Positions 909-33,991 of a stretch of 64,000 bases of DNA are shown piece after piece (position 1 is the stretch's first letter; every line of letters starts with the position of its first letter). The translations under genes were made by a program, and so were the position numbers. Below the pieces are notes generated by a model. That model was not told the origin of the DNA, made no database searches, and saw only the letters and a program-made list of their open reading frames with translations. Origin of the DNA: Deltaproteobacteria bacterium (GTDB lineage Bacteria > Desulfobacterota > Binatia > UBA1149 > SPBQ01); NCBI GenBank assembly GCA_029262375.1, contig JAJCZM010000053.1, positions 29,400 through 93,399 on the forward strand, in the 5' to 3' direction.

Positions 909-1640
909 TTATGAAGGGTCGGACGCTTTTTTCGTCGCGCCGGTAAGCATGACTTCGAGCAGTGCGTTGGTGTACGCCTGCGACGCCTCAGGGCTTCGTG
1001 CGTCGATCCCATAGAGCGATTTCACCAGCGGTGCGAGGTGGAAGAAATGTTGCGCTGCGCCGAAGAAAACGAAAAGCAGGTATGCGTTCGGAATGTCTCG
1101 AACCAGTCCCGCTTCTTTGAGGTCGTCCAAGTAGACGCCCCAGCGTTCGAACAGCGGCCGAAGGTAGTATTCGGTCAGCCACTCCAGGCGCGGGCCCTGA
1201 ACCACGCCTTCGTGGTTCAGAATGCAAGCGAACTCCGGGTTCGCCGCCGCGAAGTCCATGAATCCGAACGTCAGTTCGACGAGACCGGGTGCCGAGTCGC
1301 TATCGGTCACTAACTCTTGCATCGCAGCGAGGTGCAGTTGAAGTTTTCCGAAGAGACCGTCTACGGTTGTTCGCCAAAGCGCCTCTTTGGAACCGAAGTG
1401 GTAGTGGACCAGAGGTTGAGTGACGCCCACGCGACGTGCGATCGACGCAGTGGTCGACCCTTCGTAGCCTTGCTCTGCAAACTCGGCAAGAGCGGCGTCG
1501 AGAATCATCTCTCTTGTGACTTTGGAAGAACGTCCACGGCGCGAAGGTGCAGTAGACGGATCGCGTGGATCTCGCGCATCGGTTGACGCGACGGCGGCCC
1601 CGGATGCTTTTCTCGAATTTGTGCTTTGAAGGTCGTCCAT
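909..1640 (-). CDS. TetR/AcrR family transcriptional regulator
   Basis: The N-terminal HTH region MILDAALAEFAEQGYEGSTTASIARRVGVTQPLVHYHFGSKEALW is a classic TetR_N signature. Confidence 0.85.
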   Translation of the reverse strand: MDDLQSTNSRKASGAAVASTDARDPRDPSTAPSRRGRSSKVTREMILDAALAEFAEQGYEGSTTASIARRVGVTQPLVHYHFGSKEALWRTTVDGLFGKLQLHLAAMQELVTDSDSAPGLVELTFGFMDFAAANPEFACILNHEGVVQGPRLEWLTEYYLRPLFERWGVYLDDLKEAGLVRDIPNAYLLFVFFGAAQHFFHLAPLVKSLYGIDARSPEASQAYTNALLEVMLTGATKKASDPS

Positions 1641-1655
1641 TGCTCGCTGTCGCGC

Positions 1656-2849
1656 TTATCTACGAACGCAGGGTGCAACGCAAGTCAGTTGACCCGTGCT
1701 GCTGCGCGGCAATTTGGGACGGTTTAGGCCACGTGCCGTGGCATTGTCTCGAATAGGATCCTGTAGGCGTATTATTCCCACACGGTCGTCGAAAACACTG
1801 CTCAGAAAGACTTCTCCGTTCACTTCGAGTGCGGTTGCTACGGCGCCAATGGTATCCCCCGAATGCGCGAATCGCTTCGTGACTTTCAGCGTCTCCGGCG
1901 TGATTTCGTAAACGGCCCAGGCGGACCTACAGGCTCCCCGACGAAAGAAACATCCGAACAACTCGTACGCTCTCGTGTGTGTGGCGACGAGGAGAGTATC
2001 GCGCGACGTCCACGTCAAATTGTCGGGAGCGCCGTCGAGATCGATGTGGATCGCACCATCCGCCGTACTGATGGCGCGGCGATGTAGGCGCTGTGCGATG
2101 GTCTCGGTGTAGAGCGCTGTCGCCCCGTCCCTTGATAGCGCTACGCCGTTCGCCATCAGTGATTGCGTCTCGGGCAGATGGCTCCAACCGGTTTCGCGCG
2201 TCCATGTCATGACATCGCCGGTTGGCTGTCGGAAAAGCGACGCCTTCACCGAATGGCGGTGGGAAGAGTCCGGCAGGTAGTTCGATGCCAGTATGAGCCC
2301 GTCTGCAGACACCGCCACATCGTTGATCATCACGCTATCGGGAGAAGGAATGCAGGCCTTCCACGTCAGCTCCGTCGTCGAAGCGGTACCGGTCAACTTG
2401 AAAATCTCGATGGCCTCGCGGCCGCCCCCATCGCCGGCGTGCGCAGCGACGTAAACTGTGGCGCCGTTCGCGTCGGCGATCGAGGTCAGTCCGTGCGGGG
2501 AGAAACTCGCGGCCGTCGGCGCCTCGGTGCAGCGGGGATCGCCGAGCGACGGGTCCGGGGCTGAGGCACCGTCGGGCCAGAGCAGGTGTGTTTCTCGCGA
2601 TTGCGGCAAAAGCGCGCTGAGAAAGCCGCCGCTTTCGAGAGGCCCGTCGCTTTTCTGCCCGCCGTCGTGGCGCATGTTCGACACGATGATGATGTCGGCC
2701 GTTTCGACGAACTCGATATCTTCGGGGTTGCGAAATCCGCAAACCGTTTCGAGTTCCTCTCCGCGCGAACACGGTGGCCGGTCCGGGCCGGCGCAAGCAC
2801 CTGCACCAACAGCCAACGCGAGTCCCAATAGCAACGAGAAGTGCTTCAT
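1656..2849 (-). CDS. Lipoprotein, SMP-30/gluconolactonase/arylesterase-like beta-propeller (tentative)
   Basis: I used the internal start MKHFSLLLGLALAVGAGAC (signal peptide plus lipobox-like GAC) of track ORF 1656..3683. Motifs such as NDVAVSADGLILASN and ANGVALSRDGATALYTET recall SMP-30/LRE-type propellers. The upstream 278 codons of the track ORF overlap the opposite-strand BNR gene and were dropped. Confidence 0.55.
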   Translation of the reverse strand: MKHFSLLLGLALAVGAGACAGPDRPPCSRGEELETVCGFRNPEDIEFVETADIIIVSNMRHDGGQKSDGPLESGGFLSALLPQSRETHLLWPDGASAPDPSLGDPRCTEAPTAASFSPHGLTSIADANGATVYVAAHAGDGGGREAIEIFKLTGTASTTELTWKACIPSPDSVMINDVAVSADGLILASNYLPDSSHRHSVKASLFRQPTGDVMTWTRETGWSHLPETQSLMANGVALSRDGATALYTETIAQRLHRRAISTADGAIHIDLDGAPDNLTWTSRDTLLVATHTRAYELFGCFFRRGACRSAWAVYEITPETLKVTKRFAHSGDTIGAVATALEVNGEVFLSSVFDDRVGIIRLQDPIRDNATARGLNRPKLPRSSTGQLTCVAPCVRR

Positions 2850-3135
2850 CGCCAAGCACCATAGCCTCTGCGGGCGGGTCGGCGAAGGCGCTCGTGCAGG
2901 CGATATGCCCCACCCGCGTCTGGCCATGGCAACGCCGGCTGCGTAATTGTGGGTCTGTGCCCACCCTTCCGGGGTAGGAGCCCTGTTTTTGCCGCGGTCG
3001 AAACCGGCTACTCTCGAAAGTCGTGCTCGCGTGTTGGTGCGCCCGTGTACCGTGTGCCCTGCGATGGTCCGCGCACGCACGCACAAACGGAAAGGAATGA
3101 GCGGGGCAATGAGACAGCGAATGCAAAGCGGCAAC

Positions 3136-4611
3136 ATGAACAGGACGAAGAAGATGAAAAGACGTTCGCTACGCGCTGTTTTGCCCGTGATCGCGACCTG
3201 CGCTTTGGTTGCGCTGTGGACGGCTTCCTCTGACTCCGCCGGCCGACTTCTCCCGTCCTTCGGGCAACAGTCGTTGCTCAGTGAACACCAGGCGCGTGGC
3301 AGCGTCACGAACATTTTTGGCTCGACAGGCTCCGACAGTAATCCTTCGGTGGCGACCGGCTCCGACGGTTTGTGGATCGCAGTGTGGCACTCCTCGGAAA
3401 CGCGCGGCAACACGCTCGGCAGCGACTGGGACGTTTTCGTATCACGCTCGAGCGACGGCGGTAACACTTGGGACGAGGGGTCTCTTCTCAATGACAACGG
3501 GGCTGATGACAAAGGCGACGACCTATCGCCGTTTGTCGCAACCGACGGCGATGGCAACTGGGTCGTGGCTTGGACATCTAGCGAGGCGATGGGCAACACT
3601 TTCGGTCGCGACCGCGACATCCTGTATTGTCGCTCGACCGATAACGGTACAACCTGGAGTTCGCCTGCACCGCTCAACGTCAACGCGGCGCAAGACTACG
3701 GTCACGACTCACACGTTCGGCTCGCCAGCGACGGCAACGGTAGTTGGGTGGCGATTTGGGTCTCCACCGACAGCCTTGTAAATCGAGTCGGCGGAGACAG
3801 CGACATCTTCGTCTCACGTTCGCGCGACAACGGTGCGAGTTGGACGCACCCGATGCCGCTCAACACCAATGCGGCCGTCGACACTGGATTCGATACTACG
3901 CCGGATATCGCAGTAGACTCCGCCGCTAACTGGACCGTCGTTTGGTCGTCCGGAGACGCTCTGGACGGCTCGCTTGGGTCCGATCGCGACATATTCGTTG
4001 CTCGTTCACAGGATGCCGGCGCGAGTTGGACCGATCCGGCCGCCCTCAACCTGACCGCAGCCGAAGACGCTCTTCACGATTGGAGCCCGCGTCTCGCGGT
4101 ATCGGACAACGGGGTGTGGGTAACCGTTTGGTCTTCGGCAGACACGCTCGGCGGAACGATCGGCATGGACAGCGACACGCTACTTGCACGTTCGCAGGAC
4201 CACGGGGCGACATGGTCCCGCCCCGTTCCTATCGATCCGCGCGCCGCTTCGGATTCTCAAGAGGACGCGTCGCCCTCGATCGTTACGGACGGCAAGTCCA
4301 AGTGGATGGTCGTTTGGCACTCGTTCTCCGCGGCCTCGGCCTACGGCGCAGCGGACTCAGATGTTGTCGCATCCATATCGCAGGACGACGGCCTGACGTG
4401 GAGTCTGCCGAAGGCTGTCAACGGGGCCGCTGCCGACGACTCCGTGGACGATTCGCATCCACAGCTCGCGACCGACGGTGCGGGGAACTGGGTCGTGATC
4501 TGGCAGACCTACGCCGTTTCCGGCGGAACGACGATCAGCGACGACGTTCGCTCGGGCTGGACCGTCCAGACGGCGCACGGTCGCCTCGTAGAGAGCGTAG
4601 ATACCAAGTAG
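3136..4611 (+). CDS. Secreted BNR/Asp-box repeat protein (sialidase-like beta-propeller)
   Basis: Asp-box motifs S-x-D-x-G-x-T-W recur as SSDGGNTW, STDNGTTW, SRDNGASW, SQDAGASW, SQDHGATW and SQDDGLTW. They are embedded in a repeat unit of about 59 aa (ATDG-GNWVV-W...D-DI...RS-D-G-TW). The signal-like N-terminus is MNRTKKMKRRSLRAVLPVIATCALVALW. The start is uncertain: 3121, 3136 or 3154. Confidence 0.8.
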   Translation: MNRTKKMKRRSLRAVLPVIATCALVALWTASSDSAGRLLPSFGQQSLLSEHQARGSVTNIFGSTGSDSNPSVATGSDGLWIAVWHSSETRGNTLGSDWDVFVSRSSDGGNTWDEGSLLNDNGADDKGDDLSPFVATDGDGNWVVAWTSSEAMGNTFGRDRDILYCRSTDNGTTWSSPAPLNVNAAQDYGHDSHVRLASDGNGSWVAIWVSTDSLVNRVGGDSDIFVSRSRDNGASWTHPMPLNTNAAVDTGFDTTPDIAVDSAANWTVVWSSGDALDGSLGSDRDIFVARSQDAGASWTDPAALNLTAAEDALHDWSPRLAVSDNGVWVTVWSSADTLGGTIGMDSDTLLARSQDHGATWSRPVPIDPRAASDSQEDASPSIVTDGKSKWMVVWHSFSAASAYGAADSDVVASISQDDGLTWSLPKAVNGAAADDSVDDSHPQLATDGAGNWVVIWQTYAVSGGTTISDDVRSGWTVQTAHGRLVESVDTK

Positions 4612-4661: not shown

Positions 4662-5663
4662 ATGGGCAAGGGGCAGACTCTACACGCACATCTTCTTGAC
4701 GCATCATCGAACGGAACGATCGACGACGGGTTGCTGACGCTGATTCTCGACCTGGTGCGGGTCTCTTGCACCATATCCGATGAAGTGAACCGCGCCGGTC
4801 TGGCCGACATACTCGGCGTCACCGGTGAGCGAAACGTTCATGGTGAAGAGGTCAAGAAGCTCGACATGCGAGCCAACGACCTGCTCATCGACGCGATGCG
4901 CGAGTCGGGCAGCGTGTGCGGCATGGCGTCTGAAGAGAACGAGGACGCGATCGATGCGTCGGCGAAAGGCGAATCCAGCGAGTACGTCTTGTTCTTCGAC
5001 CCGCTCGACGGTTCCTCGAACATCGACGTGAATGTGAGCATCGGCACTATCTTCTCCATCTATCGAAGAAAGTCCGAGCGCGGCACATCGGCCACCCCCG
5101 AGGACTACCTGCAGCGCGGCACAGAGCAGGTCGCCGCCGGCTACTTTGTCTACGGTTCGAGCACGATGCTCGTCTACACTGCCGGAAACGGAGTGCACGG
5201 ATTCACACTCGATCCATCCAAGCGCGAGTACTTTCTCTCGCATGCGAGCATCCGCACGCCGTCGAGAGGAAGGGTCTTCAGCTGCAACGAAGGCAACACG
5301 AACACGTGGTGCAGCGGCACGCAGAAGTACGTCGCGTCGCTCAAGGCGTCCGACACCGCGGGAAAGCCGTATTCCGGCCGCTACGTCGGCTCGTTCGTGG
5401 CCGACTTCCACCGCAATCTGCTCAAGGGCGGAATCTTCCTCTATCCGTCGCAAGACCAGGGGCCGGGCAAGCCGCGCAAAGGTAAGCTTCGGCTGATGTA
5501 CGAAGGCAATCCTATGGCCATGGTCGTGGAGCAAGCGGGCGGCCGCGCCAGTGACGGTGCTCGTCGCATCATGGATATCGTTCCCGGGGAAATTCACGAG
5601 CGCGTCGCTTTGATCATCGGCTCTAGCGATGACGTCGAAGAGTACCTGGGCTTCGTCAAGTAG
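4662..5663 (+). CDS. fbp: Fructose-1,6-bisphosphatase class 1
   Basis: Internal ATG of track ORF 3942..5663. Motifs include FFDPLDGSSNIDVNVSIGTIFSI, GYFVYGSSTMLV, GRYVGSFVADFHRNLLKGGIFLYP and LRLMYEGNPMAMVVEQAGG. Confidence 0.95.
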   Translation: MGKGQTLHAHLLDASSNGTIDDGLLTLILDLVRVSCTISDEVNRAGLADILGVTGERNVHGEEVKKLDMRANDLLIDAMRESGSVCGMASEENEDAIDASAKGESSEYVLFFDPLDGSSNIDVNVSIGTIFSIYRRKSERGTSATPEDYLQRGTEQVAAGYFVYGSSTMLVYTAGNGVHGFTLDPSKREYFLSHASIRTPSRGRVFSCNEGNTNTWCSGTQKYVASLKASDTAGKPYSGRYVGSFVADFHRNLLKGGIFLYPSQDQGPGKPRKGKLRLMYEGNPMAMVVEQAGGRASDGARRIMDIVPGEIHERVALIIGSSDDVEEYLGFVK

Positions 5664-5942: not shown

Positions 5943-7400
5943 GTGCGAACGAAGTTTGGTTCGATATGTAGTTTGATTGGTTTCGGCGTAGCGGGGTTGG
6001 CGTTGGCGACCGCCTCAGACGCGGCGGCACAGGTCGATTGTAGTTTCTCGATCCATCTCGACGATGCAGTCGCGATCGGCTCGATACAGTACACGCTCGA
6101 CTATTCCGGTACCGGTGGCGACATCAACGGGCTGGGCGGTGACGTGGAGTGCAGCGACCTGACCAGCTCGTTCGTTACGTTTTTCGATGACGACGCCGGT
6201 AGCGTGAACGCGGCCTACCTGAGTTTCACCGGTTTCAACGGCCCGACCGACATGGCCACCTGCAACATGACGGCGCCGATCGTTCCAAGTGCGGGCGACT
6301 TCAGTGTGGTCGTGAGTGACGCTGCCGATCCTTTCACCGCGCCGATCGATCCGCTGCCGGTGGCTTCGGTCACCGATATCAGTTGCTCGGGCGGCGCTGG
6401 ATCGACGACCACGACCTTCGGTGGAACCACGACGACTTCCACGACTTCCACCACCAGCACGACATTCCCGGGCAGCCCGTTCTGCTGGGTCCGCGTTTCG
6501 ATGACGACGAATGAGTCGCTCGGTTCGCTGCAATACGATCTGGACTACAGCGGCGCGTCCGGTGAGTTCGAAGGCTCGGCCGATTCCGTAACTTGCGAGA
6601 ACCTGGTCGGCGGTGCGATTTCCACGATGGCTGATGACGACGTCGATACGGTCGGGGTCGCAGTGATCTCGCTCAGCGGGTTCACGGGGCCGACCGATGT
6701 AACTCGCTGCGTATGGTTGCCGAGCGGTGCCGATCCGGTTGCCGGCGACTATTCCATCACTATCGTCGACGCGTCGGATACGGATGCGATGCCGGTGATC
6801 CCCCAGCCGACCATCGAAATTTCCGATATCAGCTGTTTCGCAGGGCCGACGACGACTACCACATCGACGACCACGACGACGTTGGCGCCGTATTGCGGCG
6901 ATGGAATGATAAATCTCGACGATGAGTGTGACGATGGCGCCGGCAATTCCGACGCGCTGCCCGATGCCTGCCGCACGGACTGCACATTGCCGACCTGTGG
7001 CGACGCCGTGACCGATAGCGGTGAGGGCTGCGATGACGGGCCGGGCAATTCGGACTCCGGTGCCGACGCCTGTCGAACCGATTGCACTCCCGCGACCTGC
7101 GGCGATAGCGTTGTGGATACCGGTGAGGACTGCGATCTCGGTGCGCAAAACAATCCTGAAGCTTCAAACGGTTGTTACGACGACTGCAGCGAGTTCATGC
7201 TCTGCGGCGACGCGAACGGTGACATGAACGTCACTGCGCCGGACGCGCAGCAAGTGCTCCAAGCCGGCGTCGGTTTGATCGCCGACTGTCCTCTCGAGCG
7301 TTGCGACGCTAGCCAGGACGGTGTGGTGACCGCCGGTGACGCACATCGCGTGTTGGCGGGTGCGGTCGGCCTCCTTATATTGGACTGCGAACAGCCCTAG
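5943..7400 (+). CDS. Secreted modular protein A: 2 unassigned four-Cys modules + Thr linkers + 3 Myxococcus-type Cys-rich repeats + dockerin-like C-terminus
   Basis: Signal peptide MRTKFGSICSLIGFGVAGLALATASDAAAQ. Modules lie at 6033-6386 and 6480-6836. Linkers are TTTTFGGTTTTSTTSTTSTT and PTTTTTSTTTTT. Cys-rich repeats of the form CGDG-x5-E-x-CDDG-x-C-x2-DC lie at about 6894-7200. The dockerin-like pair CGDANGDMNVTAPDAQQVL...CDASQDGVVTAGDAHRVL lies at about 7202-7390. Confidence 0.85.
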   Translation: MRTKFGSICSLIGFGVAGLALATASDAAAQVDCSFSIHLDDAVAIGSIQYTLDYSGTGGDINGLGGDVECSDLTSSFVTFFDDDAGSVNAAYLSFTGFNGPTDMATCNMTAPIVPSAGDFSVVVSDAADPFTAPIDPLPVASVTDISCSGGAGSTTTTFGGTTTTSTTSTTSTTFPGSPFCWVRVSMTTNESLGSLQYDLDYSGASGEFEGSADSVTCENLVGGAISTMADDDVDTVGVAVISLSGFTGPTDVTRCVWLPSGADPVAGDYSITIVDASDTDAMPVIPQPTIEISDISCFAGPTTTTTSTTTTTLAPYCGDGMINLDDECDDGAGNSDALPDACRTDCTLPTCGDAVTDSGEGCDDGPGNSDSGADACRTDCTPATCGDSVVDTGEDCDLGAQNNPEASNGCYDDCSEFMLCGDANGDMNVTAPDAQQVLQAGVGLIADCPLERCDASQDGVVTAGDAHRVLAGAVGLLILDCEQP

Positions 7401-7597
7401 ACGCTTTCGACGAAAGAACTCCTCAGATACGTCGTCGCTTTGGTGTCGCGTATCCTCCTCAGCGCGCCCTGTCGGTCCCCAAGCCGACGGGGCGCAGCTG
7501 GTTTGAGGGCAACTGTGTCGTACTCGCCCCTGAGTAGGACCGGGCGGCCTTGCTCGTGGAGAGTTCCCGGGACTACGCTGTAGCCGGTACGCGCTGA

Positions 7598-8458
7598 ATG
7601 TTACGAACCGCAAAGCGAGTGGCCTATCTGTTGGCCGTATGGGCCACGTGCACATTGTTGTCGGCCCGCACCGTACCGACCGCGTCGGCGGCTGGATCGG
7701 GCTTTACCTGCCGTGTCTCCGTCGGCATGACGGAGCCGCTTCTAGGCCTGATTCGCCTCGATTTCGACCTATTCTATCCGTCGGGAACCGCCAACGTCGT
7801 CGGCTCCGGGAGCGATGCTGCGTGCAGAGGCCTGGCGATCGACGTGAACGACCAGCCGGTTGCCACTCAGTTCATCGACGACGACGACGGAACTCTCAGC
7901 GCGTCGCTGGTCTCGCTCAACAGCTTCGCCGGCTTTACCCCGTTGGCGCTATGTACTGTGTTCACCTCGGTTCCGCTCGTGATGTCGGATTTTTCAGCTG
8001 GAGCAGTGCTCGCAAACATTCCGGGCGGGGCGCCTGCGGAGATGCTGCCGCCGATCCAGATCACGGGGGTCGATTGCTCGATGGGGACGACGACGACGTT
8101 GTCGACCAGTACCACGAGCATGACGACACTGACTACCACGACGACATCGACGACGACGACTACTACTCTCAGTATGCCGACTACGACTCTCGTCATGCCG
8201 ACCACGACCGTAATCGGCTCTACGACGACCACGACCACGCTTGGCGGCTCGCTGCCCACATGCGGCGATCCTGACGCATCCGGCTCTACTACCGCCACAG
8301 ACGCTCTGTTCATCCTGAAGGGCTCGGTTGGGCTTCTCGCCTGCGCTGCCGAGTTCTGCGATGTCGATTCCAGTGGCAGTGTAACCGCCAGCGATGCGCT
8401 GCGGGTTCTCGGCGTCGCCGTCGGGCTACCTCACGAACTCAGCTGCCCCGGCACCTGA
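7598..8458 (+). CDS. Secreted modular protein B: 1 four-Cys module + long Thr-rich linker + dockerin-like C-terminus
   Basis: Signal peptide MLRTAKRVAYLLAVWATCTLLSARTVPTASA. The module lies at 7703-8077. A Thr-rich linker of about 55 aa lies at 8084-8245. The dockerin-like pair CGDPDASGSTTATDALFIL...CDVDSSGSVTASDALRVL lies at about 8261-8440. Confidence 0.8.
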   Translation: MLRTAKRVAYLLAVWATCTLLSARTVPTASAAGSGFTCRVSVGMTEPLLGLIRLDFDLFYPSGTANVVGSGSDAACRGLAIDVNDQPVATQFIDDDDGTLSASLVSLNSFAGFTPLALCTVFTSVPLVMSDFSAGAVLANIPGGAPAEMLPPIQITGVDCSMGTTTTLSTSTTSMTTLTTTTTSTTTTTTLSMPTTTLVMPTTTVIGSTTTTTTLGGSLPTCGDPDASGSTTATDALFILKGSVGLLACAAEFCDVDSSGSVTASDALRVLGVAVGLPHELSCPGT

Positions 8459-8724
8459 ACCGCCGACTGGAGCGACCAGCCGGCGTCGCGCGACCTGCGC
8501 TAGCGCATACAGTCCGTCATCCACCCCACCTTTGCGGTGTAGCTCTTTGCAGCGCCGTCTCTGCGCTCGCGGCAATGACCGGCATGTAGTCGTCGTTGAG
8601 CGCGACGGTATTTTGACGCGTGTGTCGATGGGCCGACACGAACTCTAAACAACCGCGTAAACGGTGTCGCAAGGTGCAACATGACATCCGTCAAGTTTGT
8701 TCCATTACGACGCGAAATTCGTCG

Positions 8725-8740
8725 TGGCTTGCGCCTTGCA
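8725..8740 (+). promoter_or_regulatory. Candidate sigma-54 (-24/-12) promoter upstream of module gene C
   Basis: TGGCTTGCGCCTTGCA has GG-N10-GC spacing with an exact TTGCA -12 element. It lies 56 nt upstream of the ATG at 8796. Confidence 0.45.
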
Positions 8741-8795
8741 AAAGCCCCGAGACCCGGGCCCTCCGGTCCGGGATACGTCTGCGAGGTAATACACG

Positions 8796-11162
8796 ATGAT
8801 TGGCAATGTAATCCGACTCTCTCTTTTGGCCTATGCGTGGTCCCTGGTTCTTCCAGTGATCGCGGGAGCGGCACAGTGTGAAGTGACCGTAGGCTTTACC
8901 GAGGAGGTCAGCGCAAGCGGAATTCTCGTAGACGTGGCTTACCCCGCCAGCGGCATCTTCGAAGGCGCCGGCGACCAGGCCGAGTGCCGGACGAACGTTC
9001 CCGGCGGACTCGCGACCTTCAACAATAAGACGGCCGACGGTGTGCTCACCACGGCGCTGATTCGAATCGACCCATTCTCCGGCGCTGACCTTTTTAGTTG
9101 CACATGGAGCGGCGCCGAGGTCAGTGCTAGCCAATTCTCGGTTTCGACCGTCGATGCGACCGACTCGAACATCAATACGATCGAGCCTTTTCCTGCTCTC
9201 GCGGTCACCAACGTGACCTGCGACGGAAACGATACGACCGGTGATACGCCCGATGGCGGCACGGCCGCGAATGACGGCGGTTGCTACATGGTCGTCAGCG
9301 CGAGCAGCTCGCAACCCATCGGCGGCCTGATGGTCGACGTGAACTACCAGGGGGCCGGCATCGAAATTGCCGGCGCAAACGACACTGCCGAGTGCTACAC
9401 GCTGGTTGCCGGCGGACTCGGCGCCTACAACGATAAGGAAGACGAGGGCAAGCTGACCGCGGCGATCGTCCATCTCTCGGGCTTTAGCGGCTACACCGAT
9501 GTCGTCGAGTGTTACGTAGATACCTACGGCGAGCCGTCGGCGGCCGACCTCGACGTCGTTGTCCTCGACGCGGTGGATCCTTCGGGCGCGGCGTTACTCC
9601 AGATTCCTGAGATCGACGTCCGCTACACGGATTGCGATTTCTCCGACGGCTCGAGCGAGCCCACGGGTACCGACGACTCGCCCAGCGATCCGGTTGCCGG
9701 CGGTGACGAGTGCACCGACGGCGCATACGATGTGACGTTCGGCGTCGATGCGACGGTCGAGATCGGATCACTACAATTCGAAGTGAACTACGCATCTGCC
9801 CCGGGCGGATTCGAAGGGACGGGCAGTACCGTTGGCTGCGAGGTCGTTGCCACTGGCAGCGGAACCTTCGCATCATTCAACGATCAAGACACGCAGTCGC
9901 GCCTCATCGCCGGCTTGGTAAGTGTCGGCGGCTTCGATGCCCCAGGCGATGTCGTTCGTTGCCGCTTCGAAGCTGAAGGCGCAGCGCCGACGGCCGCTGA
10001 CTTCTCGACTTCGGTCAACGACGCATCGACGCCCAATGTACAAGCGATCGTTCCGACCCCGGGCGTTGTTGTTACTTCGATTTCGCCTGCAGCCGATAAC
10101 GCATGTGGTGGCGAGTGCGGCAACGGTGTCGTCGACGGAAACGAGGCCTGTGACGATGGCAACGACAGTGATTTCGATTCTTGCAAGAACGATTGCACCG
10201 AAAATACCTGCGGCGACGGCGTGCTCAACGACAGCGTCGAGGACTGTGACGACGGGAACAACGACGACACCGACGCCTGTGTGTCCGACTGCACCGAGAA
10301 TGTCTGCGGTGACGGAAACGTCTACGGCGGCGTAGAAGACTGCGACGACGGCTCTGCGAACTCGGACAGCGCGGCCGATGCTTGTCGATCCGATTGCAGC
10401 CTGCCGGTGTGCGGTGACGGCGTCGCCGACTTCGGGGAAGACTGTGACGATGGCAACGATGCCGACGACGATTCGTGCCTCTCGGATTGTGTCGTAGCCT
10501 ACTGCGGTGACGGTTTCGTAAACGTCGGTGTCGAGGACTGCGACGACGGTGCGCTCAACAACGATGCCGACCCGGATACCTGTCGCTCCGACTGCACGTG
10601 GCCGCTGATCTGCGGCGACGTCGATAGCAACGGCGTGGTGACTGCAACCGACTCGCGACGCGTCCTCGAGAGCGCGGTGGGCCTGTCGGACCATTGCGCC
10701 GGTCGCCTCTGCGATGTTGACGGTAACTCGCGTGTCACTGCGACCGACGCCCAGCTGGTGCTCGGATACGCCGTCGGCGTGGACATAGAGCTGCAGTGCA
10801 TGATGCCCGTGATCGTATCGATCGACTCGGACCAGGCCTTCGGTGCGCTCCAGTTCACCATCGACTACGCCGCAACAGGATCGACCTTCATGGGCAATGG
10901 AGCCGACGTCTACTGCATCAACCTCGTCGAGGATGGAGCGCTAGTCAGCTTCAACAACATGACGGATACCTCGCAGCTCCACGTTGGAGTGGTCAGCGTG
11001 GGAGCGGTCCAGGGGCCGCTCGATGTCCTCGCTTGCAGCTTCTATCCGACGGGCGACAGCCTCTCGGCGGAAGACTTCCAGGTTGAAGTGACCGACGCGA
11101 CGGATGCAGCGGTTAACGAGATCCCGCTCGAGGACGTCGTGATAGGAGTGCGATTTGAATAG
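8796..11162 (+). CDS. Secreted modular protein C: 4 four-Cys modules + 5 Myxococcus-type Cys-rich repeats + dockerin-like module
   Basis: Signal peptide MIGNVIRLSLLAYAWSLVLPVIAGAAQ. Modules lie at 8877-9221, 9282-9635, 9711-10090 and 10801-11159; the last one sits after the dockerin. Five repeats of CG[DN]G-x5-E-x-CDDG...C-x2-DC lie at about 10116-10600. The dockerin-like pair CGDVDSNGVVTATDSRRVL...CDVDGNSRVTATDAQLVL lies at about 10611-10790. Confidence 0.85.
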   Translation: MIGNVIRLSLLAYAWSLVLPVIAGAAQCEVTVGFTEEVSASGILVDVAYPASGIFEGAGDQAECRTNVPGGLATFNNKTADGVLTTALIRIDPFSGADLFSCTWSGAEVSASQFSVSTVDATDSNINTIEPFPALAVTNVTCDGNDTTGDTPDGGTAANDGGCYMVVSASSSQPIGGLMVDVNYQGAGIEIAGANDTAECYTLVAGGLGAYNDKEDEGKLTAAIVHLSGFSGYTDVVECYVDTYGEPSAADLDVVVLDAVDPSGAALLQIPEIDVRYTDCDFSDGSSEPTGTDDSPSDPVAGGDECTDGAYDVTFGVDATVEIGSLQFEVNYASAPGGFEGTGSTVGCEVVATGSGTFASFNDQDTQSRLIAGLVSVGGFDAPGDVVRCRFEAEGAAPTAADFSTSVNDASTPNVQAIVPTPGVVVTSISPAADNACGGECGNGVVDGNEACDDGNDSDFDSCKNDCTENTCGDGVLNDSVEDCDDGNNDDTDACVSDCTENVCGDGNVYGGVEDCDDGSANSDSAADACRSDCSLPVCGDGVADFGEDCDDGNDADDDSCLSDCVVAYCGDGFVNVGVEDCDDGALNNDADPDTCRSDCTWPLICGDVDSNGVVTATDSRRVLESAVGLSDHCAGRLCDVDGNSRVTATDAQLVLGYAVGVDIELQCMMPVIVSIDSDQAFGALQFTIDYAATGSTFMGNGADVYCINLVEDGALVSFNNMTDTSQLHVGVVSVGAVQGPLDVLACSFYPTGDSLSAEDFQVEVTDATDAAVNEIPLEDVVIGVRFE

Positions 11163-31288: not shown

Positions 31289-33727
31289 CTACGGCGCCGG
31301 TGGGAAGATGCAGCTGACACCGAGGTTGAGGAACGCGCAGGCGAGATCTCCCTGCACCGAGATGTTCGTCGTTTGCACCTCCGATTCCTTGCCCCAGCCA
31401 CAGCCGGGCCCATCCGGATCGGGGAAAAACGAGGTGTCTGACAGCGTCGCGATGTCCACACCGTAGCCTTCGCCGTGCAGGTGGTCGTCGTCACAGCCGA
31501 AGTCCACGCCGACGTTTCGCAGCTGACACAGCGGAATGACGAATCCGCCGACCAGCAGACCCGACACTGAAATTGGCGGACCGTCGTAGCAGAGCTCGCA
31601 CATGCAGGTTTCGGGGGTACAGACTTCCCCCTCCATGCAGCCCACATCGGCGGTGTCGGGCCCTACGGTGACAACATCGCAGTTCTCTAAACCGGGAGTA
31701 AACACCCCATCGCCGCAGCGTTGCGTGACGAGCCCGCATTCGCACCGCGTGGTACACGAGTCTCCCTCTGTTACGCAGCCGCTGGGTACCGCGAGCGGGT
31801 CGCAGTGCTCACCTGGATCGATGACGCCGTTCGGGTCGCACGGGAACTCCGTGCACGTGCATCGCAGCTCATTGCACGTGAGCGGATCGGGGCACATGAC
31901 ACCGACTTCACAGGCTTCTCCGGCTTCGAGCGTACCGTTGGGGCACAGGGGCTCGCCGGTATCCGGAACGCACTGGCAGTTCGCTAGATTGCACTGTTGC
32001 TGCGCAGGACAGCCGCCGGCGGCGCGGTCGCACTGTTCGGCTCCTTGTAGGATGCCGTCGCCGCAGTACGGTCCGGGATTGCAGACACAGTTCGGTGCGC
32101 AGACGTCACTGGGGTTCACGCAGCCGGTCGGATTGGCGGTCGGATCGCACGGCTCGCCAGCATCGACGGTTCCGTTGCCGCACAGCTTCGGCTTGTAGCA
32201 CATGCAATCAATCCCGCTGCAGAACTGGCCGGCAGGGCAGGTGGGTGTCGGGAACTCACACTGTTCCGGCAGAGTGAGAATGCCGTCCTCGCATTGCGAC
32301 AGTGAGCAAGTGCAGTCGGTCATGTTGCACGCCGCCGCCGGATTCGCGCACGCGATACCGACCTCACATTGTTCCGGAGCGACCAAGACCCCATCGCCGC
32401 AACCGCAGGTGATCGCAGAACCGCTTTGGATTTCGAGCGCATCGATGTCGTCGGTCAGATCGAGCCCAAGCGCGATCTCGTCTACCGCGAGCTGGTTGGT
32501 GCCGTTGCCCTGCGACACGAAGATGTCGGCCGCTGCTTCGCCGAATACGTGCTGCGCGTTGACCGCACTGCCGGGCGCACCGACTGAAGCCGGAGACACT
32601 GAGAATAGGATGTAGTCTTCGTTGTTGAAGATGCCGTCGTCATCGATGTCTTGGACTACCAGTGCATCAACTTCATCGCTTTCAAGTAGGCCGATGTTGG
32701 CCGCCGATAGGATCTGGCTGGTTGCACCGCCGGACGAGCGGAAGATCGATGCGCCTCCCGTACCGTTTCCGGCCACGCTGAGGAAGTACGGATTGCCGCT
32801 ACTGCCGAAGTCCAACGCGTCGAGATCGTCGGTCGGGTCGCCGGCCAGGTCGTGCGGGTGCAGTCCGAGCGCGATCTCGTCTCGCGATAGTGTGTTGGTT
32901 CCGAGCGCGGTTCCGCCCTGGCTCGAAAAGATGTCGCCGGCATAGGTTTCCGTCTGTGACTCATCGCGTGCTGCACTGCCGCTGAGGCCGGTGCTGCGTG
33001 GCGAATCGGCGAGCGAGAAGAAGTATGTGTACGGCGAATGTACGTATCCGCCGAACGAGATGCCGTCTAGTTCATCGCTGGTTGCGAGACCCAATGCGCT
33101 CTCTTCGACGGCCAGCGTATTGTCGCCGGCTGCCGCCGGTGCATGCTCGCCGGTCCCTGCGCTCGTGTAGAGGTCAGCGGAGTGTTCGCTGACCGCAGAC
33201 TCTGCAGCAACGTCGCTTCCGGGTACGCCCGAGCTTCCGGCCGTCACTCCGAAGCTCAGGCCGGCTTCCGGAATTTCGAAGGTTGGGCACGTCGTCGATG
33301 TCGTCGTGCTACCGCCTCCGTCGCAGGCGGGGCAGTTCGCAGTGATGCTCTGGCCGACCGCCAGTGCGAGCGTGAGCAATGCGTCGGCTGCGGTGACTGC
33401 GCCGCTCCCGTTGACGTCGCACACGCACAGAACGCACGATTGTAGCCCGACGGCTGCTTGCAGAACGAGCAATGCATCGGTGGCGGTGATGATGGCCGCG
33501 CTTCCGGGTGCCGGTTCGCCGTTAGAAGTCGCGACCAAAGCAATCGGATCTCCACAGACCTGCGTCGTGGCGGATGCATGAATGGCGGCTGTGCGAGTCT
33601 GTGCCGTCGTCTCGGCAGCGGGCGCCAGTAGCCACGCTGCGGTGACGAACGTCGCCAGTGCCATCGTGACGGGCGCCACGCGGCGCACGAAGAAATCTTC
33701 AATCGCTTGGGTCGAGTGATCGGCCAT
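31289..33727 (-). CDS. Large secreted protein D: N-terminal dockerin-like module, 4 ALGL...DxLDAL repeats, 7 six-Cys repeats, Cys-containing C-terminal domain
   Basis: I used the internal ATG at 33727, with AAGGAG 7 nt upstream. The signal-like segment is VAPVTMALATFVTAAWLLAPAAETTAQ. The dockerin-like segment (about 33337-33560) includes CDVNGSGAVTAADALLTL. Six-Cys repeats CG[DN]G-x5-E-x-C...C...C...C-x-C x7 lie at about 31589-32407. Confidence 0.8.
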   Translation of the reverse strand: MADHSTQAIEDFFVRRVAPVTMALATFVTAAWLLAPAAETTAQTRTAAIHASATTQVCGDPIALVATSNGEPAPGSAAIITATDALLVLQAAVGLQSCVLCVCDVNGSGAVTAADALLTLALAVGQSITANCPACDGGGSTTTSTTCPTFEIPEAGLSFGVTAGSSGVPGSDVAAESAVSEHSADLYTSAGTGEHAPAAAGDNTLAVEESALGLATSDELDGISFGGYVHSPYTYFFSLADSPRSTGLSGSAARDESQTETYAGDIFSSQGGTALGTNTLSRDEIALGLHPHDLAGDPTDDLDALDFGSSGNPYFLSVAGNGTGGASIFRSSGGATSQILSAANIGLLESDEVDALVVQDIDDDGIFNNEDYILFSVSPASVGAPGSAVNAQHVFGEAAADIFVSQGNGTNQLAVDEIALGLDLTDDIDALEIQSGSAITCGCGDGVLVAPEQCEVGIACANPAAACNMTDCTCSLSQCEDGILTLPEQCEFPTPTCPAGQFCSGIDCMCYKPKLCGNGTVDAGEPCDPTANPTGCVNPSDVCAPNCVCNPGPYCGDGILQGAEQCDRAAGGCPAQQQCNLANCQCVPDTGEPLCPNGTLEAGEACEVGVMCPDPLTCNELRCTCTEFPCDPNGVIDPGEHCDPLAVPSGCVTEGDSCTTRCECGLVTQRCGDGVFTPGLENCDVVTVGPDTADVGCMEGEVCTPETCMCELCYDGPPISVSGLLVGGFVIPLCQLRNVGVDFGCDDDHLHGEGYGVDIATLSDTSFFPDPDGPGCGWGKESEVQTTNISVQGDLACAFLNLGVSCIFPPAP

Positions 33728-33991
33728 GTCAGGGCTCCTTGACGGAGTATCGCCTACGCGCTTGCGACGAGGGCTCCGTGTTGACAGGTGATTGTCCAGA
33801 CATTTTGCAGTGAAGCGAGCAAGTTGGAGACAGGCGGCGGGGGACGGTGCGCGATTTGTCCACGCCCGGTCGTCCGTATATCCCATGGCTGGTTCGAGGC
33901 ACCGATTCGCGGTGTCCCGCGTCGCGTCACATCACGTTGCATCACGTCGTCCGGCCGACCACACGGCGGACAAGGCACGCAAGGATTTAGA

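Follow-up and report, generated by a model that had tools for sequence, protein, structure and literature searches.

The window analysed here, a 64,000-nucleotide stretch of DNA from an uncultured Gram-negative bacterium, contains three neighbouring genes that raise the question of whether their products join outside the cell, as the parts of a cellulosome do. As initially annotated, genes A (5943–7400, 485 aa), B (7598–8458, 286 aa) and C (8796–11162, 788 aa) were all recovered as ORFs on the plus strand, and the signal peptide attributed to each agreed with N-termini that are signal-peptide-like by sequence and in a hydropathy window. After this N-terminus, the product of A contains two modules of predicted cohesin fold, three Cys-rich repeats and a C-terminal dockerin, that of B one module, a Thr-rich linker and a dockerin, and that of C three modules, five Cys-rich repeats, a dockerin and a directly fused fourth module. 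No catalytic domain was found in A, B or C, and no glycoside hydrolase near them. The exact product of A also appears on an NCBI contig of 268 kb, the identical product of C is present in a second assembly, and B is called as 286 aa on a Logan contig vs. 243 aa at NCBI. Moreover, the locus is conserved in a relative, where one gene resembling A and one resembling C share a neighbourhood.

The seven related module copies proposed in the initial annotation aligned over about 118 columns with 27–38% identity to A1, and each matched the family HMM (E 6e-21 to 2e-42); the A1/A2 identity, estimated by eye at about 40%, was 38% in the alignment. All lie on the plus strand. Gene A encodes A1 (6039–6386, aa 33–148, four Cys, family HMM E 7.6e-36 and alignment) and A2 (6483–6836, aa 181–298, four Cys, E 1.5e-42, also modelled with AlphaFold2 and compared with Foldseek). 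Gene B encodes B1 (7709–8077, aa 38–160, E 5.6e-21 and alignment), the most divergent copy. Gene C encodes C1 (8877–9221, aa 28–142, E 2.5e-33), C2 (9282–9635, aa 163–280, E 2.1e-33), C3 (9711–10088, aa 306–431, envelope from 9726, E 4.8e-40 and alignment) and C4 (10797–11159, aa 668–788, E 1.3e-33), which abuts the dockerin without a linker. The annotated positions held overall, although C4 is in frame at 10800 (10797 with the Cys) rather than 10801, and C3 ends at 10088/10091. DNA comparison gave only short matches of 60–80%, in linker, Cys-repeat and dockerin DNA, and this lack of a DNA-level repeat linking the modules fits the old protein-level duplication that had been suggested.

Four Cys had been described as conserved in the module. 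The inner two are indeed near-invariant in the family (243/245 and 245/245 sequences), whereas the outer pair is optional, its members co-occurring with an odds ratio of 27 (p = 3.5e-23). C3 lacks the last Cys; C4 also lacks it and shares its first Cys with the dockerin end, so that only the inner pair is its own. The Cys counts of the mature proteins are all even (24 in A, 8 in B and 38 in C), which, together with the invariant inner pair and the covarying outer pair, points to extracellular chemistry. On the best explanation of the sequences, A, B and C would be modular proteins that are exported and have all their Cys in disulfide bonds.

The module, for which no named family had been recognised, gave no sequence-profile match in Pfam, NCBIfam or the PDB, and no unrelated well-characterised family claimed it in profile searches. 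A whole-database search with the module HMM retrieved representatives of 945 clusters (50% identity) at E ≤ 1e-3 and 656 at E ≤ 1e-10, which, with the family-HMM scores, places the module far beyond chance. It is strongly supported as a large, widespread, previously unmodelled family of about 118 aa, with mostly two to four copies per protein. The family dockerin HMM detected a dockerin in the module's own chain in 68 of 157 family proteins (43%), the remaining 57% showing none; Pfam Dockerin_1 matched the module's chain for 32 of the 93 members searched. Among the 157 proteins, those with a dockerin most often have the MMcDM architecture, and 11 MMcD members end in a free dockerin, as do A and B. 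Of 41 dockerin-to-module junctions in the family, 36 are 0–5 residues long, while the median module-to-module linker is 31 residues and the median module-to-dockerin spacer 100. Thus, the dockerin-then-module order of C, initially considered unusual, proved to be the one that dockerin-bearing family members most often show, with almost no linker. In addition, 23 family lipoproteins combine a conserved N-domain with two modules and are dockerin-free, and fusions to FG-GAP_2, Disintegrin and BNR_2 occur once each among 93 members. At the loci L035 and L036, dockerin-like domains are carried by a beta-helix protein and a beta-propeller-like protein encoded next to module genes; at two other loci, L001 type and L033, no dockerin was found within 10 kb.

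The fold of the module was predicted by running AlphaFold2 on A2 as a single module with a 95-sequence alignment. The model is a nine-strand beta-sandwich (pLDDT 98.0, pTM 0.89), and nearly all of its top ~20 Foldseek matches in the PDB were cohesins (probability 0.9–1.0), including 2jh2, 2xdh, 5g5d, 6kgf, 2ccl and 1ohz and spanning types I, II and III as well as non-cellulosomal cohesins. The Foldseek E-values were modest (0.02–0.3, none ≤ 1e-3), and the TM-scores of 0.5–0.66, the best being that of 2xdh (0.66, rmsd 3.4 Å over 112 columns), indicate a shared fold class but no close resemblance. YcnI, ConA and CBM3 were low-probability matches, and Ig, fibronectin and CBM folds ranked below cohesins. 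The match list of an independent, weaker module model (pLDDT 76) was likewise headed almost exclusively by cohesins. Both models therefore bear out the predicted cohesin-like beta-sandwich, and it is strongly supported by modelling that cohesins are the nearest solved structural relatives of the module. The claim that the module opening resembles the start of cohesins did not survive, as no sequence resemblance was detectable: Pfam Cohesin matched none of the seven modules or 93 family members, cohesins were absent from the profile-versus-PDB results, and hhalign against a CipA cohesin gave a probability of 0.4%.

Exactly one dockerin per protein was confirmed in A, B and C, all on the plus strand. 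That of A (7197–7388, family dockerin HMM E 4.5e-27 and alignment) has the F-hand repeats DANGDMNVTAPD and DASQDGVVTAGD and four Cys, that of B (8255–8443, E 1e-27) contains DPDASGSTTATD and DVDSSGSVTASD, and that of C (10605–10796, E 8.7e-28) contains DVDSNGVVTATD and DVDGNSRVTATD. Against the Pfam Dockerin_1 cut-off of 22.9 bits, C scored above (29.5 bits) and A and B below (22.3 and 17.1 bits). All six Ca-loops fit the canonical D-x-[DNS]-x-[DNS]...D pattern, and the family dockerin alignment is conserved. The Dockerin_1 scores and six canonical loops uphold the dockerin-like double Ca-loop first noticed here, and the sequences strongly support a duplicated Ca-loop plus helix, stapled by four Cys, as the predicted dockerin of each protein. 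Against a cohesin/dockerin reading stands the abundance of dockerin-like modules in cohesin-free genomes, described by Peer et al. (2009) according to PMC5244752.

The remaining parts are linkers and Cys-rich repeats, again on the plus strand. Regular-expression searches located a Thr/Ser-rich linker in A (6402–6473, also read directly), a second Thr-rich linker in A (6849–6890) and the Thr-rich linker of B (8087–8248), which has about 58 residues, close to the 55 initially estimated; these linkers are probably extended and possibly glycosylated, and together with the Cys-rich acidic repeats they connect the rigid parts of the proteins. The counts of Cys-rich acidic repeats of the DUF4215/TIGR02232 type given previously were correct, with three in A (6894–7187, four Cys each, regular expression and Pfam) and five in C (10116–10595, regular expression, Pfam and TIGR02232). 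DUF4215 scored 55.4 bits in C, above the cut-off of 27, and 20.1 bits in A, below it; TIGR02232 scored 22 bits in C vs. a cut-off of 20.8.

A fourth dockerin-like protein is encoded on the minus strand at 31289–33886 (family dockerin HMM E 7.7e-20), about 20 kb from A, B and C. Its dockerin-like pair lies at 33335–33508 and reached only 13.7 bits with Pfam Dockerin_1 (E 0.073). The ORF also encodes an N-terminal hydrophobic segment resembling a signal or membrane anchor, a Thr-rich linker, an uncharacterised region of about 300 aa and many Cys-rich repeats, and contains no cohesin-fold module. Its sequence makes it a candidate partner or cargo of A, B and C.

Comparison with known systems revealed both likenesses and differences. 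Archaeoglobus fulgidus, an organism without cellulosome enzymes, has a cohesin and a dockerin in one polypeptide. Its non-cellulosomal cohesin 2xdh is the module's best TM match (TMq 0.66, probability 1.00), but the two share only 14% identity with no sequence-profile relationship detected, and the window modules differ in having two disulfides and up to four copies per chain, in being connected through Thr-rich linkers and DUF4215 repeats, and in their Gram-negative host. Clostridium perfringens cohesins (2jh2, 2vo8, 2w1n and 2o4e) are also top Foldseek matches (E 0.024–0.16, probability 0.99–1.00), and cohesin-dockerin pairs there join secreted proteins for purposes other than cellulose degradation; however, those cohesins reside on glycoside hydrolases, unlike in the catalytic-domain-free A, B and C, and are unrelated in sequence to the window modules at profile level. 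The scaffoldins of cellulosomes, both adaptor and anchoring, similarly carry several sockets but just one dockerin in each chain, along with Thr/Pro-rich linkers, and anchoring scaffoldins are paralleled by the dockerin-free, membrane-anchored lipoproteins of the family. In contrast to cellulosomal scaffoldins, the window has no CBM, SLH or sortase anchor and no nearby dockerin-tagged glycoside hydrolases, and clostridial systems lack the Cys-rich repeats and disulfides of A, B and C. The X-module-dockerin dyads of type II/III complexes (such as 5g5d and 4iu3) likewise have a non-cohesin-binding partner domain packed on the dockerin, whereas C has the dockerin-then-module order rather than X-then-dockerin, and its adjoining module is itself of cohesin fold. 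Non-cellulosomal precedents are known from archaea and Gram-negative bacteria (PMC5244752, PMC6461901, PMC10553843), including assemblies hypothesised for Planctomycetes (the 'planctosome'; PMC6461901) and for ANME archaea with sulfate-reducing partners (PMC5244752, PMC10553843). These resemble the present case in their secreted cohesin and dockerin proteins, their non-cellulolytic, uncultured and partly Gram-negative hosts, and the surface complexes or adhesins proposed, whose function there is unproven; they differ in having been found by canonical domain models, which the window module, with its own large family, escapes. The models and sequences suggest that the A/B/C system may be a sequence-divergent take on this non-cellulosomal cohesin-dockerin theme.

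The cohesin-fold modules and the one dockerin per protein suggest that A, B and C may join outside the cell, and whether they do so as cohesin/dockerin-type proteins, as cellulosome parts do, is in our judgement evenly poised on the predicted structures and sequences. The initial proposal to this effect stood in respect of fold and dockerin motif and failed in respect of sequence resemblance to cohesins. It is practically inconceivable that the three genes are spurious ORFs in GC-rich DNA or low-complexity repeats with no real proteins behind them: the GC content is 62% and the opposite strand has long overlapping ORFs, but this explanation is refuted by homologues numbering in the hundreds at E ≤ 1e-30, in-frame Pfam domains, the confident fold (pLDDT 98), conserved synteny and identical products in independent assemblies.

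A possible, if somewhat doubtful, explanation is that the modules are beta-sandwich domains of a generic kind, forming stalks or mediating adhesion in secreted adhesins or matrix proteins, with the dockerin-like domain binding another target or forming a Ca2+-stabilised cap. The lack of detectable sequence homology to cohesins allows for convergence or such a generic role, most family members have no same-chain dockerin, the occasional fusions noted above are of adhesion type, and published accounts regard such domains as putative adhesins of unexplained mechanism. However, the fold matches cohesins specifically, ahead of the other beta-sandwich folds, and 34–43% of members have a dockerin in the same chain, a strong association for domains that are not related. 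Module ligands of this kind could be a polysaccharide or a surface, or the module a mere spacer, and the dockerin target could be another receptor or the outer membrane. We consider it unlikely that the dockerin instead pairs mainly in-chain with the module fused after it, as at the C-terminus of C, giving a structural end-cap in the form of a self-capped terminal unit and no polymeric network. The very short dockerin-to-module junctions, compared with the longer linkers elsewhere, and the prevalence of MMcDM speak for this arrangement, whereas the dockerin is terminal and free in A, B and the 11 MMcD members, and with no residues in between it may be unable to reach the binding face of the next module. 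A closed terminal unit may bind a different target, the dockerin being free in A and B.

If A, B and C do act as cohesin/dockerin-type proteins, the modules would be the sockets into which the dockerins plug in a Ca2+-dependent manner, and with one plug and one to four sockets per chain the three proteins could join themselves and each other in branched extracellular assemblies. Further dockerin-tagged proteins might be drawn in, for instance the one encoded at 31289–33886. At the C-terminus of C, the dockerin and C4 would form a rigid dyad, in which C4 may stabilise its neighbour much as the X-module does in XDoc dyads, or the two may instead form an intramolecular plug-in-socket. Across the family, the two-module lipoproteins would provide a cell-anchored base and A/B/C-like proteins the adaptors, which would mirror the division of labour between anchoring and adaptor scaffoldins, here with no glycoside hydrolases in the vicinity. 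The likely biological role of A, B and C would be that of a surface or matrix scaffold, or of an adhesion structure.

The three open reading frames A (5943–7400, 485 aa), B (7598–8458, 286 aa), and C (8796–11162, 788 aa) were all present on the plus strand at the coordinates of the initial annotation. The G+C content of this region (62%) is similar to that of the remainder of the window, and promoter and terminator scans returned nothing exceeding shuffle expectation. Each protein begins with one or two basic residues and a hydrophobic stretch followed by an Ala-rich cleavage-like site, an N-terminal pattern from which we infer export. The Cys counts without signal peptides are all even (24 in A, 8 in B, and 38 in C), which is consistent with fully disulfide-bonded extracellular proteins. 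In the NCBI record, gene B is 243 aa long and starts at Met44, which removes the signal peptide as well as the first strand and first Cys of its module; the 286-aa start, as in a Logan assembly, is the better fit to the family alignment.

The seven module copies (A1, A2, B1, and C1–C4) could be aligned over about 118 columns, with 27–38% identity to A1. The start of C4 had been placed one base off, at 10801, and the in-frame start is 10800, or 10797 with the Cys included. The modules had been regarded as products of old duplication, and this view held: no module-to-module DNA repeat was found, and the DNA self-matches were only short (60–80%), in Thr-codon linkers, Cys-rich repeats, and dockerin halves. 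A recent DNA duplication was therefore ruled out as the origin of the modules.

The two Ca2+ loops of each dockerin were read directly as DANGDMNVTAPD and DASQDGVVTAGD in A, DPDASGSTTATD and DVDSSGSVTASD in B, and DVDSNGVVTATD and DVDGNSRVTATD in C. All six fit the EF-hand-like pattern D-x-[DNS]-x-[DNS]-x6-D, and the helix motif A-x-x-V-L-x-x-A-V-G comes after every one of them, giving A, B, and C the tandem 12-residue loop (D1, D/N/S3, D/N/S5, D12) plus helix of a dockerin. Relative to the gathering threshold of Pfam Dockerin_1 (PF00404, 22.9 bits), C scored above (29.5 bits), A just below (22.3 bits), and B below (17.1 bits). The three dockerins align closely with one another and with 22 dockerins of family members (family dockerin HMM, E ~1e-27), and the layout of two repeats flanked by four Cys is kept in those 22. 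A pattern search for CG[DN]G...E-x-CDDG...C-x2-3-DC bore out the reported number of Cys-rich repeats, three in A and five in C. Protein C matched DUF4215 at 55.4 bits (cut-off 27) and TIGR02232 of NCBIfam at 22.0 bits (cut-off 20.8); the DUF4215 score of A was 20.1 bits, under the cut-off of 27, with three clear repeats by pattern.

Sequence models did not place the modules among the cohesins. Pfam Cohesin (PF00963) matched none of the seven modules at E ≤ 10, and no cohesin chain was matched when module profiles built from 7 and 95 sequences were searched against PDB sequences. In addition, hhalign of the 95-sequence profile with one CipA cohesin sequence, a query confirmed as 1aoh-like (E 1e-89), gave a probability of only 0.4%, and no canonical cohesin was found in the loci retrieved for comparison. 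The matches obtained in the PDB sequence search (DARPin and PD-1) had E > 1 and were attributed to chance, and those to Big_3 (E 0.012), Sporozoite_P67, and LIC10920 were trivial Thr-rich or borderline matches judged compositional. Pfam, NCBIfam, and PDB sequence profiles thus assigned the module to no family, and the profile searches suggested in the initial annotation returned no claim by an unrelated one.

The module fold was then predicted using AlphaFold2. A first model from a ten-sequence alignment (pLDDT 76) already had cohesins as its best PDB matches, with the same ranking as the later model. With 95 diverse family copies, module A2 was modeled at pLDDT 98.0 and pTM 0.89 as a nine-stranded beta-sandwich of the jelly-roll type, as in cohesins. 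Foldseek comparison of this model with the PDB showed that cohesins make up nearly all of the top ~20 matches (probability 0.9–1.0, TMq 0.51–0.66, rmsd 3.4–4.3 Å), with modest E-values of 0.02–0.3, none ≤1e-3, and identities of 9–18%. The matches heading the list include the C. perfringens cohesins 2jh2, 2vo8, and 2w1n, the type I cohesins 2ccl, 1ohz, 3ul4, and 6kgf, the type II cohesins 5g5d and 3l8q, and the type III cohesins 2zf9 and 4iu3, and the non-cellulosomal A. fulgidus cohesin 2xdh matched with TMq 0.66 and rmsd 3.4 Å over 112 columns. YcnI, concanavalin A, and B4GALNT1 folds ranked lower, with low probability. The model therefore agrees with the cohesin-like beta-sandwich that had been anticipated. 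With such E-values and identities, and the null hhalign result with CipA, the cohesin-like fold of the module may reflect either distant homology or convergence.

To assess the extent of the family, an HMM built from ten module copies was scored against 1.84 billion cluster representatives. The scan recovered 945 proteins at E ≤ 1e-3, of which 656 reached E ≤ 1e-10 and 119 reached E ≤ 1e-30; among the matches listed, most proteins have two to four copies. Word-indexed homologue searches with module alignments had returned 5 and 2 matches, as against the 945 of the exhaustive scan, because divergence makes common 5-mers rare in this family; similarly divergent families may be under-reported by such searches. 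The matches from a locus search with protein C were confined to DUF4215 repeats and came from Myxococcota, Binatia, archaea, and CPR. Among 245 full-length module copies, the inner two Cys are near-invariant (243/245 and 245/245), and the outer two, at the first and last positions, are optional yet co-occur (odds ratio 27, p = 3.5e-23). This pattern suggests one obligatory and one optional disulfide, the latter probably linking the first and last strands.

Of 93 family representatives analysed with Pfam, 43 had DUF4215, 32 had Dockerin_1, and none had Cohesin (E ≤ 0.01); an HMM made from the family's own dockerins, more sensitive than Pfam, detected a same-chain dockerin in 68 of 157 family proteins. 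With M for module, c for Cys-rich repeats, D for dockerin, and N for an N-terminal region, the commonest layouts were M-M (46 proteins, many of which may be fragments), N-M-M (23), M-M-c-D-M (18), and M-M-c-D (11). The module that follows the dockerin in C (C4) had been considered an unusual order, but M-M-c-D-M is in fact the main dockerin-bearing layout. Moreover, the dockerin-to-module junction comprises 0–5 residues in 36 of 41 cases, indicating that the dockerin and the following module form a rigid dyad. The linkers that join modules are 35% Thr, with a median length of 31 residues, and the median length of the spacers leading from a module to a dockerin is 100. Modules before and after the dockerin did not split clearly into subfamilies, and the mean identity was 29–35% in all classes.

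The 23 N regions cluster together. They open with a signal of the lipoprotein type (…G-C-D/N), after which comes a Cys-containing, weakly module-like domain. This domain of about 120–170 aa (lipobox Cys, then …FF.. G.G.C..V…DL…) is joined by a Thr-rich linker to two canonical modules in P0010, P0031, P0038, P0049, P0050, and 18 other proteins, all outside the window. Its match to the module HMM is weak (E 0.04 for P0010), and it is possibly a third module that has degenerated. Another family protein, P0002, is a lipoprotein with a single module.

When all six frames of the window were scanned with the HMMs of the family, no module beyond the seven was detected, and one further dockerin-like domain appeared, in an ORF at 31289–33886 on the minus strand. 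Its 865-aa product has 58 Cys and a Thr linker but no module, and looks secreted or membrane-anchored. The dockerin-like domain scored E 5.6e-16 to 7.7e-20 with the family HMM and only 13.7 bits with Pfam Dockerin_1; no other Pfam family and no recognised enzyme domain was found in this protein. The dockerin-like pair is N-terminal (33335–33508) with a degenerate first loop, and the remainder contains a region of about 300 aa in which the motif D-x-[LI]-D-[AG]-[LI] recurs, then numerous Cys repeats of the CG[DN]G type and a C-terminal domain without assignment. The modules are thus encoded together with dockerin-bearing proteins, namely A, B, and C themselves and this ORF.

Dockerin-like helix pairs also adjoin module genes on two unrelated contigs, in a Beta_helix_4 protein (L035, 13427–15370, plus strand, E 9e-4) and in a beta-propeller-like protein of 750 aa that has a long Thr/Pro linker (L036, 13296–15551, minus strand, E 3e-7). 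Both pairs are degenerate and have extra Cys, with the acidic Ca2+ loops replaced by P-L-[ST]-x-G-A-x-P-x-A-S-D, and they may represent a dockerin variant that does not depend on Ca2+. In the ORF at 31289–33886 of the window, the first half of the dockerin-like pair looks similar. At the L001-type locus and at L033, other loci with module genes, no dockerin was present within 10 kb. Module genes often have a second module gene within a few kb. At L033 (13775–15724, minus strand) it encodes 456 aa with a single strong module, and at L035 (15509–16654, plus strand) a DUF4215 protein of 379 aa that also has a single module, an arrangement reminiscent of the A, B, and C cluster.

The flanks of A-B-C are mostly housekeeping genes, including class 1 FBPase (fbp, ending at 5663), D-Tyr-tRNA deacylase (dtd), a DUF1285 protein, a SpoU-type methylase (trmL-like), a DUF2959 protein, and a ZapG-like protein. 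The closest named relatives of the FBPase are in Candidatus Binatia MAGs (61–64% identity; metagenome proteins reach 84%), and the ZapG-like and DUF2959 neighbours look proteobacterial. The lineage is treated here as that of an uncultured Gram-negative bacterium. Upstream of A (909–4611) lie genes for a TetR regulator, for an SGL protein (SMP-30/gluconolactonase-like), and for a secreted beta-propeller protein with BNR repeats (2947–4611). These three genes keep their order in a relative, L031 (GCA_966190875.1; 3835–7404), where the whole locus reads TetR–SGL–BNR–A-like–C-like–dtd–DUF1285–methylase, without B. The three upstream genes may be functionally linked to the module proteins. BNR_2 is fused to modules in one of the 93 family members.

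No unrelated family claims the module and its predicted fold is a cohesin-like beta-sandwich, so the view that cohesin-fold modules and dockerins share secreted chains remains supported. That the modules bind the dockerins, so that A, B, and C would self- or hetero-assemble, is close to an even call. Plausibility comes from the strong same-chain association of modules with dockerins, the additional dockerin-like proteins nearby, the dockerin-free lipoprotein members as possible anchors, and the precedent of other lineages. Non-cellulosomal cohesin–dockerin proteins are found in ANME archaea and sulfate reducers (PMC5244752, PMC10553843) and in Planctomycetes (PMC6461901), where their function is called unknown or hypothetical. 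We consider it less probable, though a serious competitor, that the modules act as a generic adhesin or stalk and the dockerin binds something else. A mainly intramolecular arrangement, with the dockerin and a module of one chain forming a cap, seems unlikely.

Dockerin-mediated assembly could take a more specific form, which we advance tentatively. An uncultured Gram-negative lineage may possess an extracellular assembly of its own that resembles a cellulosome, is hardened by disulfides, and uses a cohesin-fold family unseen by standard cohesin models. Its base would consist of lipoprotein-anchored two-module proteins, adaptors that combine modules with a dockerin, A, B, and C among them, would provide a branching scaffold, and dockerin-tagged non-CAZyme proteins (Cys-rich, beta-helix, and beta-propeller) would be the cargo. 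A cellulosome has a CBM, a cell-wall anchor, and scaffoldin cohesins to which dockerin-tagged carbohydrate-active enzymes are recruited, and the A-B-C locus does not fit this description: Pfam identified no glycoside hydrolase, CBM, or SLH domain in A, B, or C, and none was seen among the flanking genes scanned.

The cohesin–dockerin pairing is among the strongest and most widely reused protein–protein connectors. To our knowledge, its natural roles beyond cellulose-degrading Firmicutes are largely guesswork. Because such systems are known outside cellulosomes, the A-B-C case is not categorically new. The novelty lies in the module family, which is disulfide-bonded, unseen by cohesin sequence models, and abundant in uncultured Gram-negative bacteria (Gene3D or ECOD may already tag it as cohesin-like), and in its combination with DUF4215 repeats and a fixed dockerin–module dyad; a search of the accessible literature for DUF4215 together with dockerin found nothing. 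If the modules do not bind dockerins, they still constitute a new and well-defined domain family, confidently modeled in its fold, that merits a database model. If they are dockerin receptors, cohesin censuses based on sequence models would have missed at least about 950 sequence clusters, and protein engineering would gain connector pairs that are small (~118 aa), stabilised by disulfides, and possibly orthogonal. The family would then also be a tractable case of extracellular self-assembly in diderm bacteria, one in which the anchors, adaptors, and candidate cargo are already identifiable from sequence.
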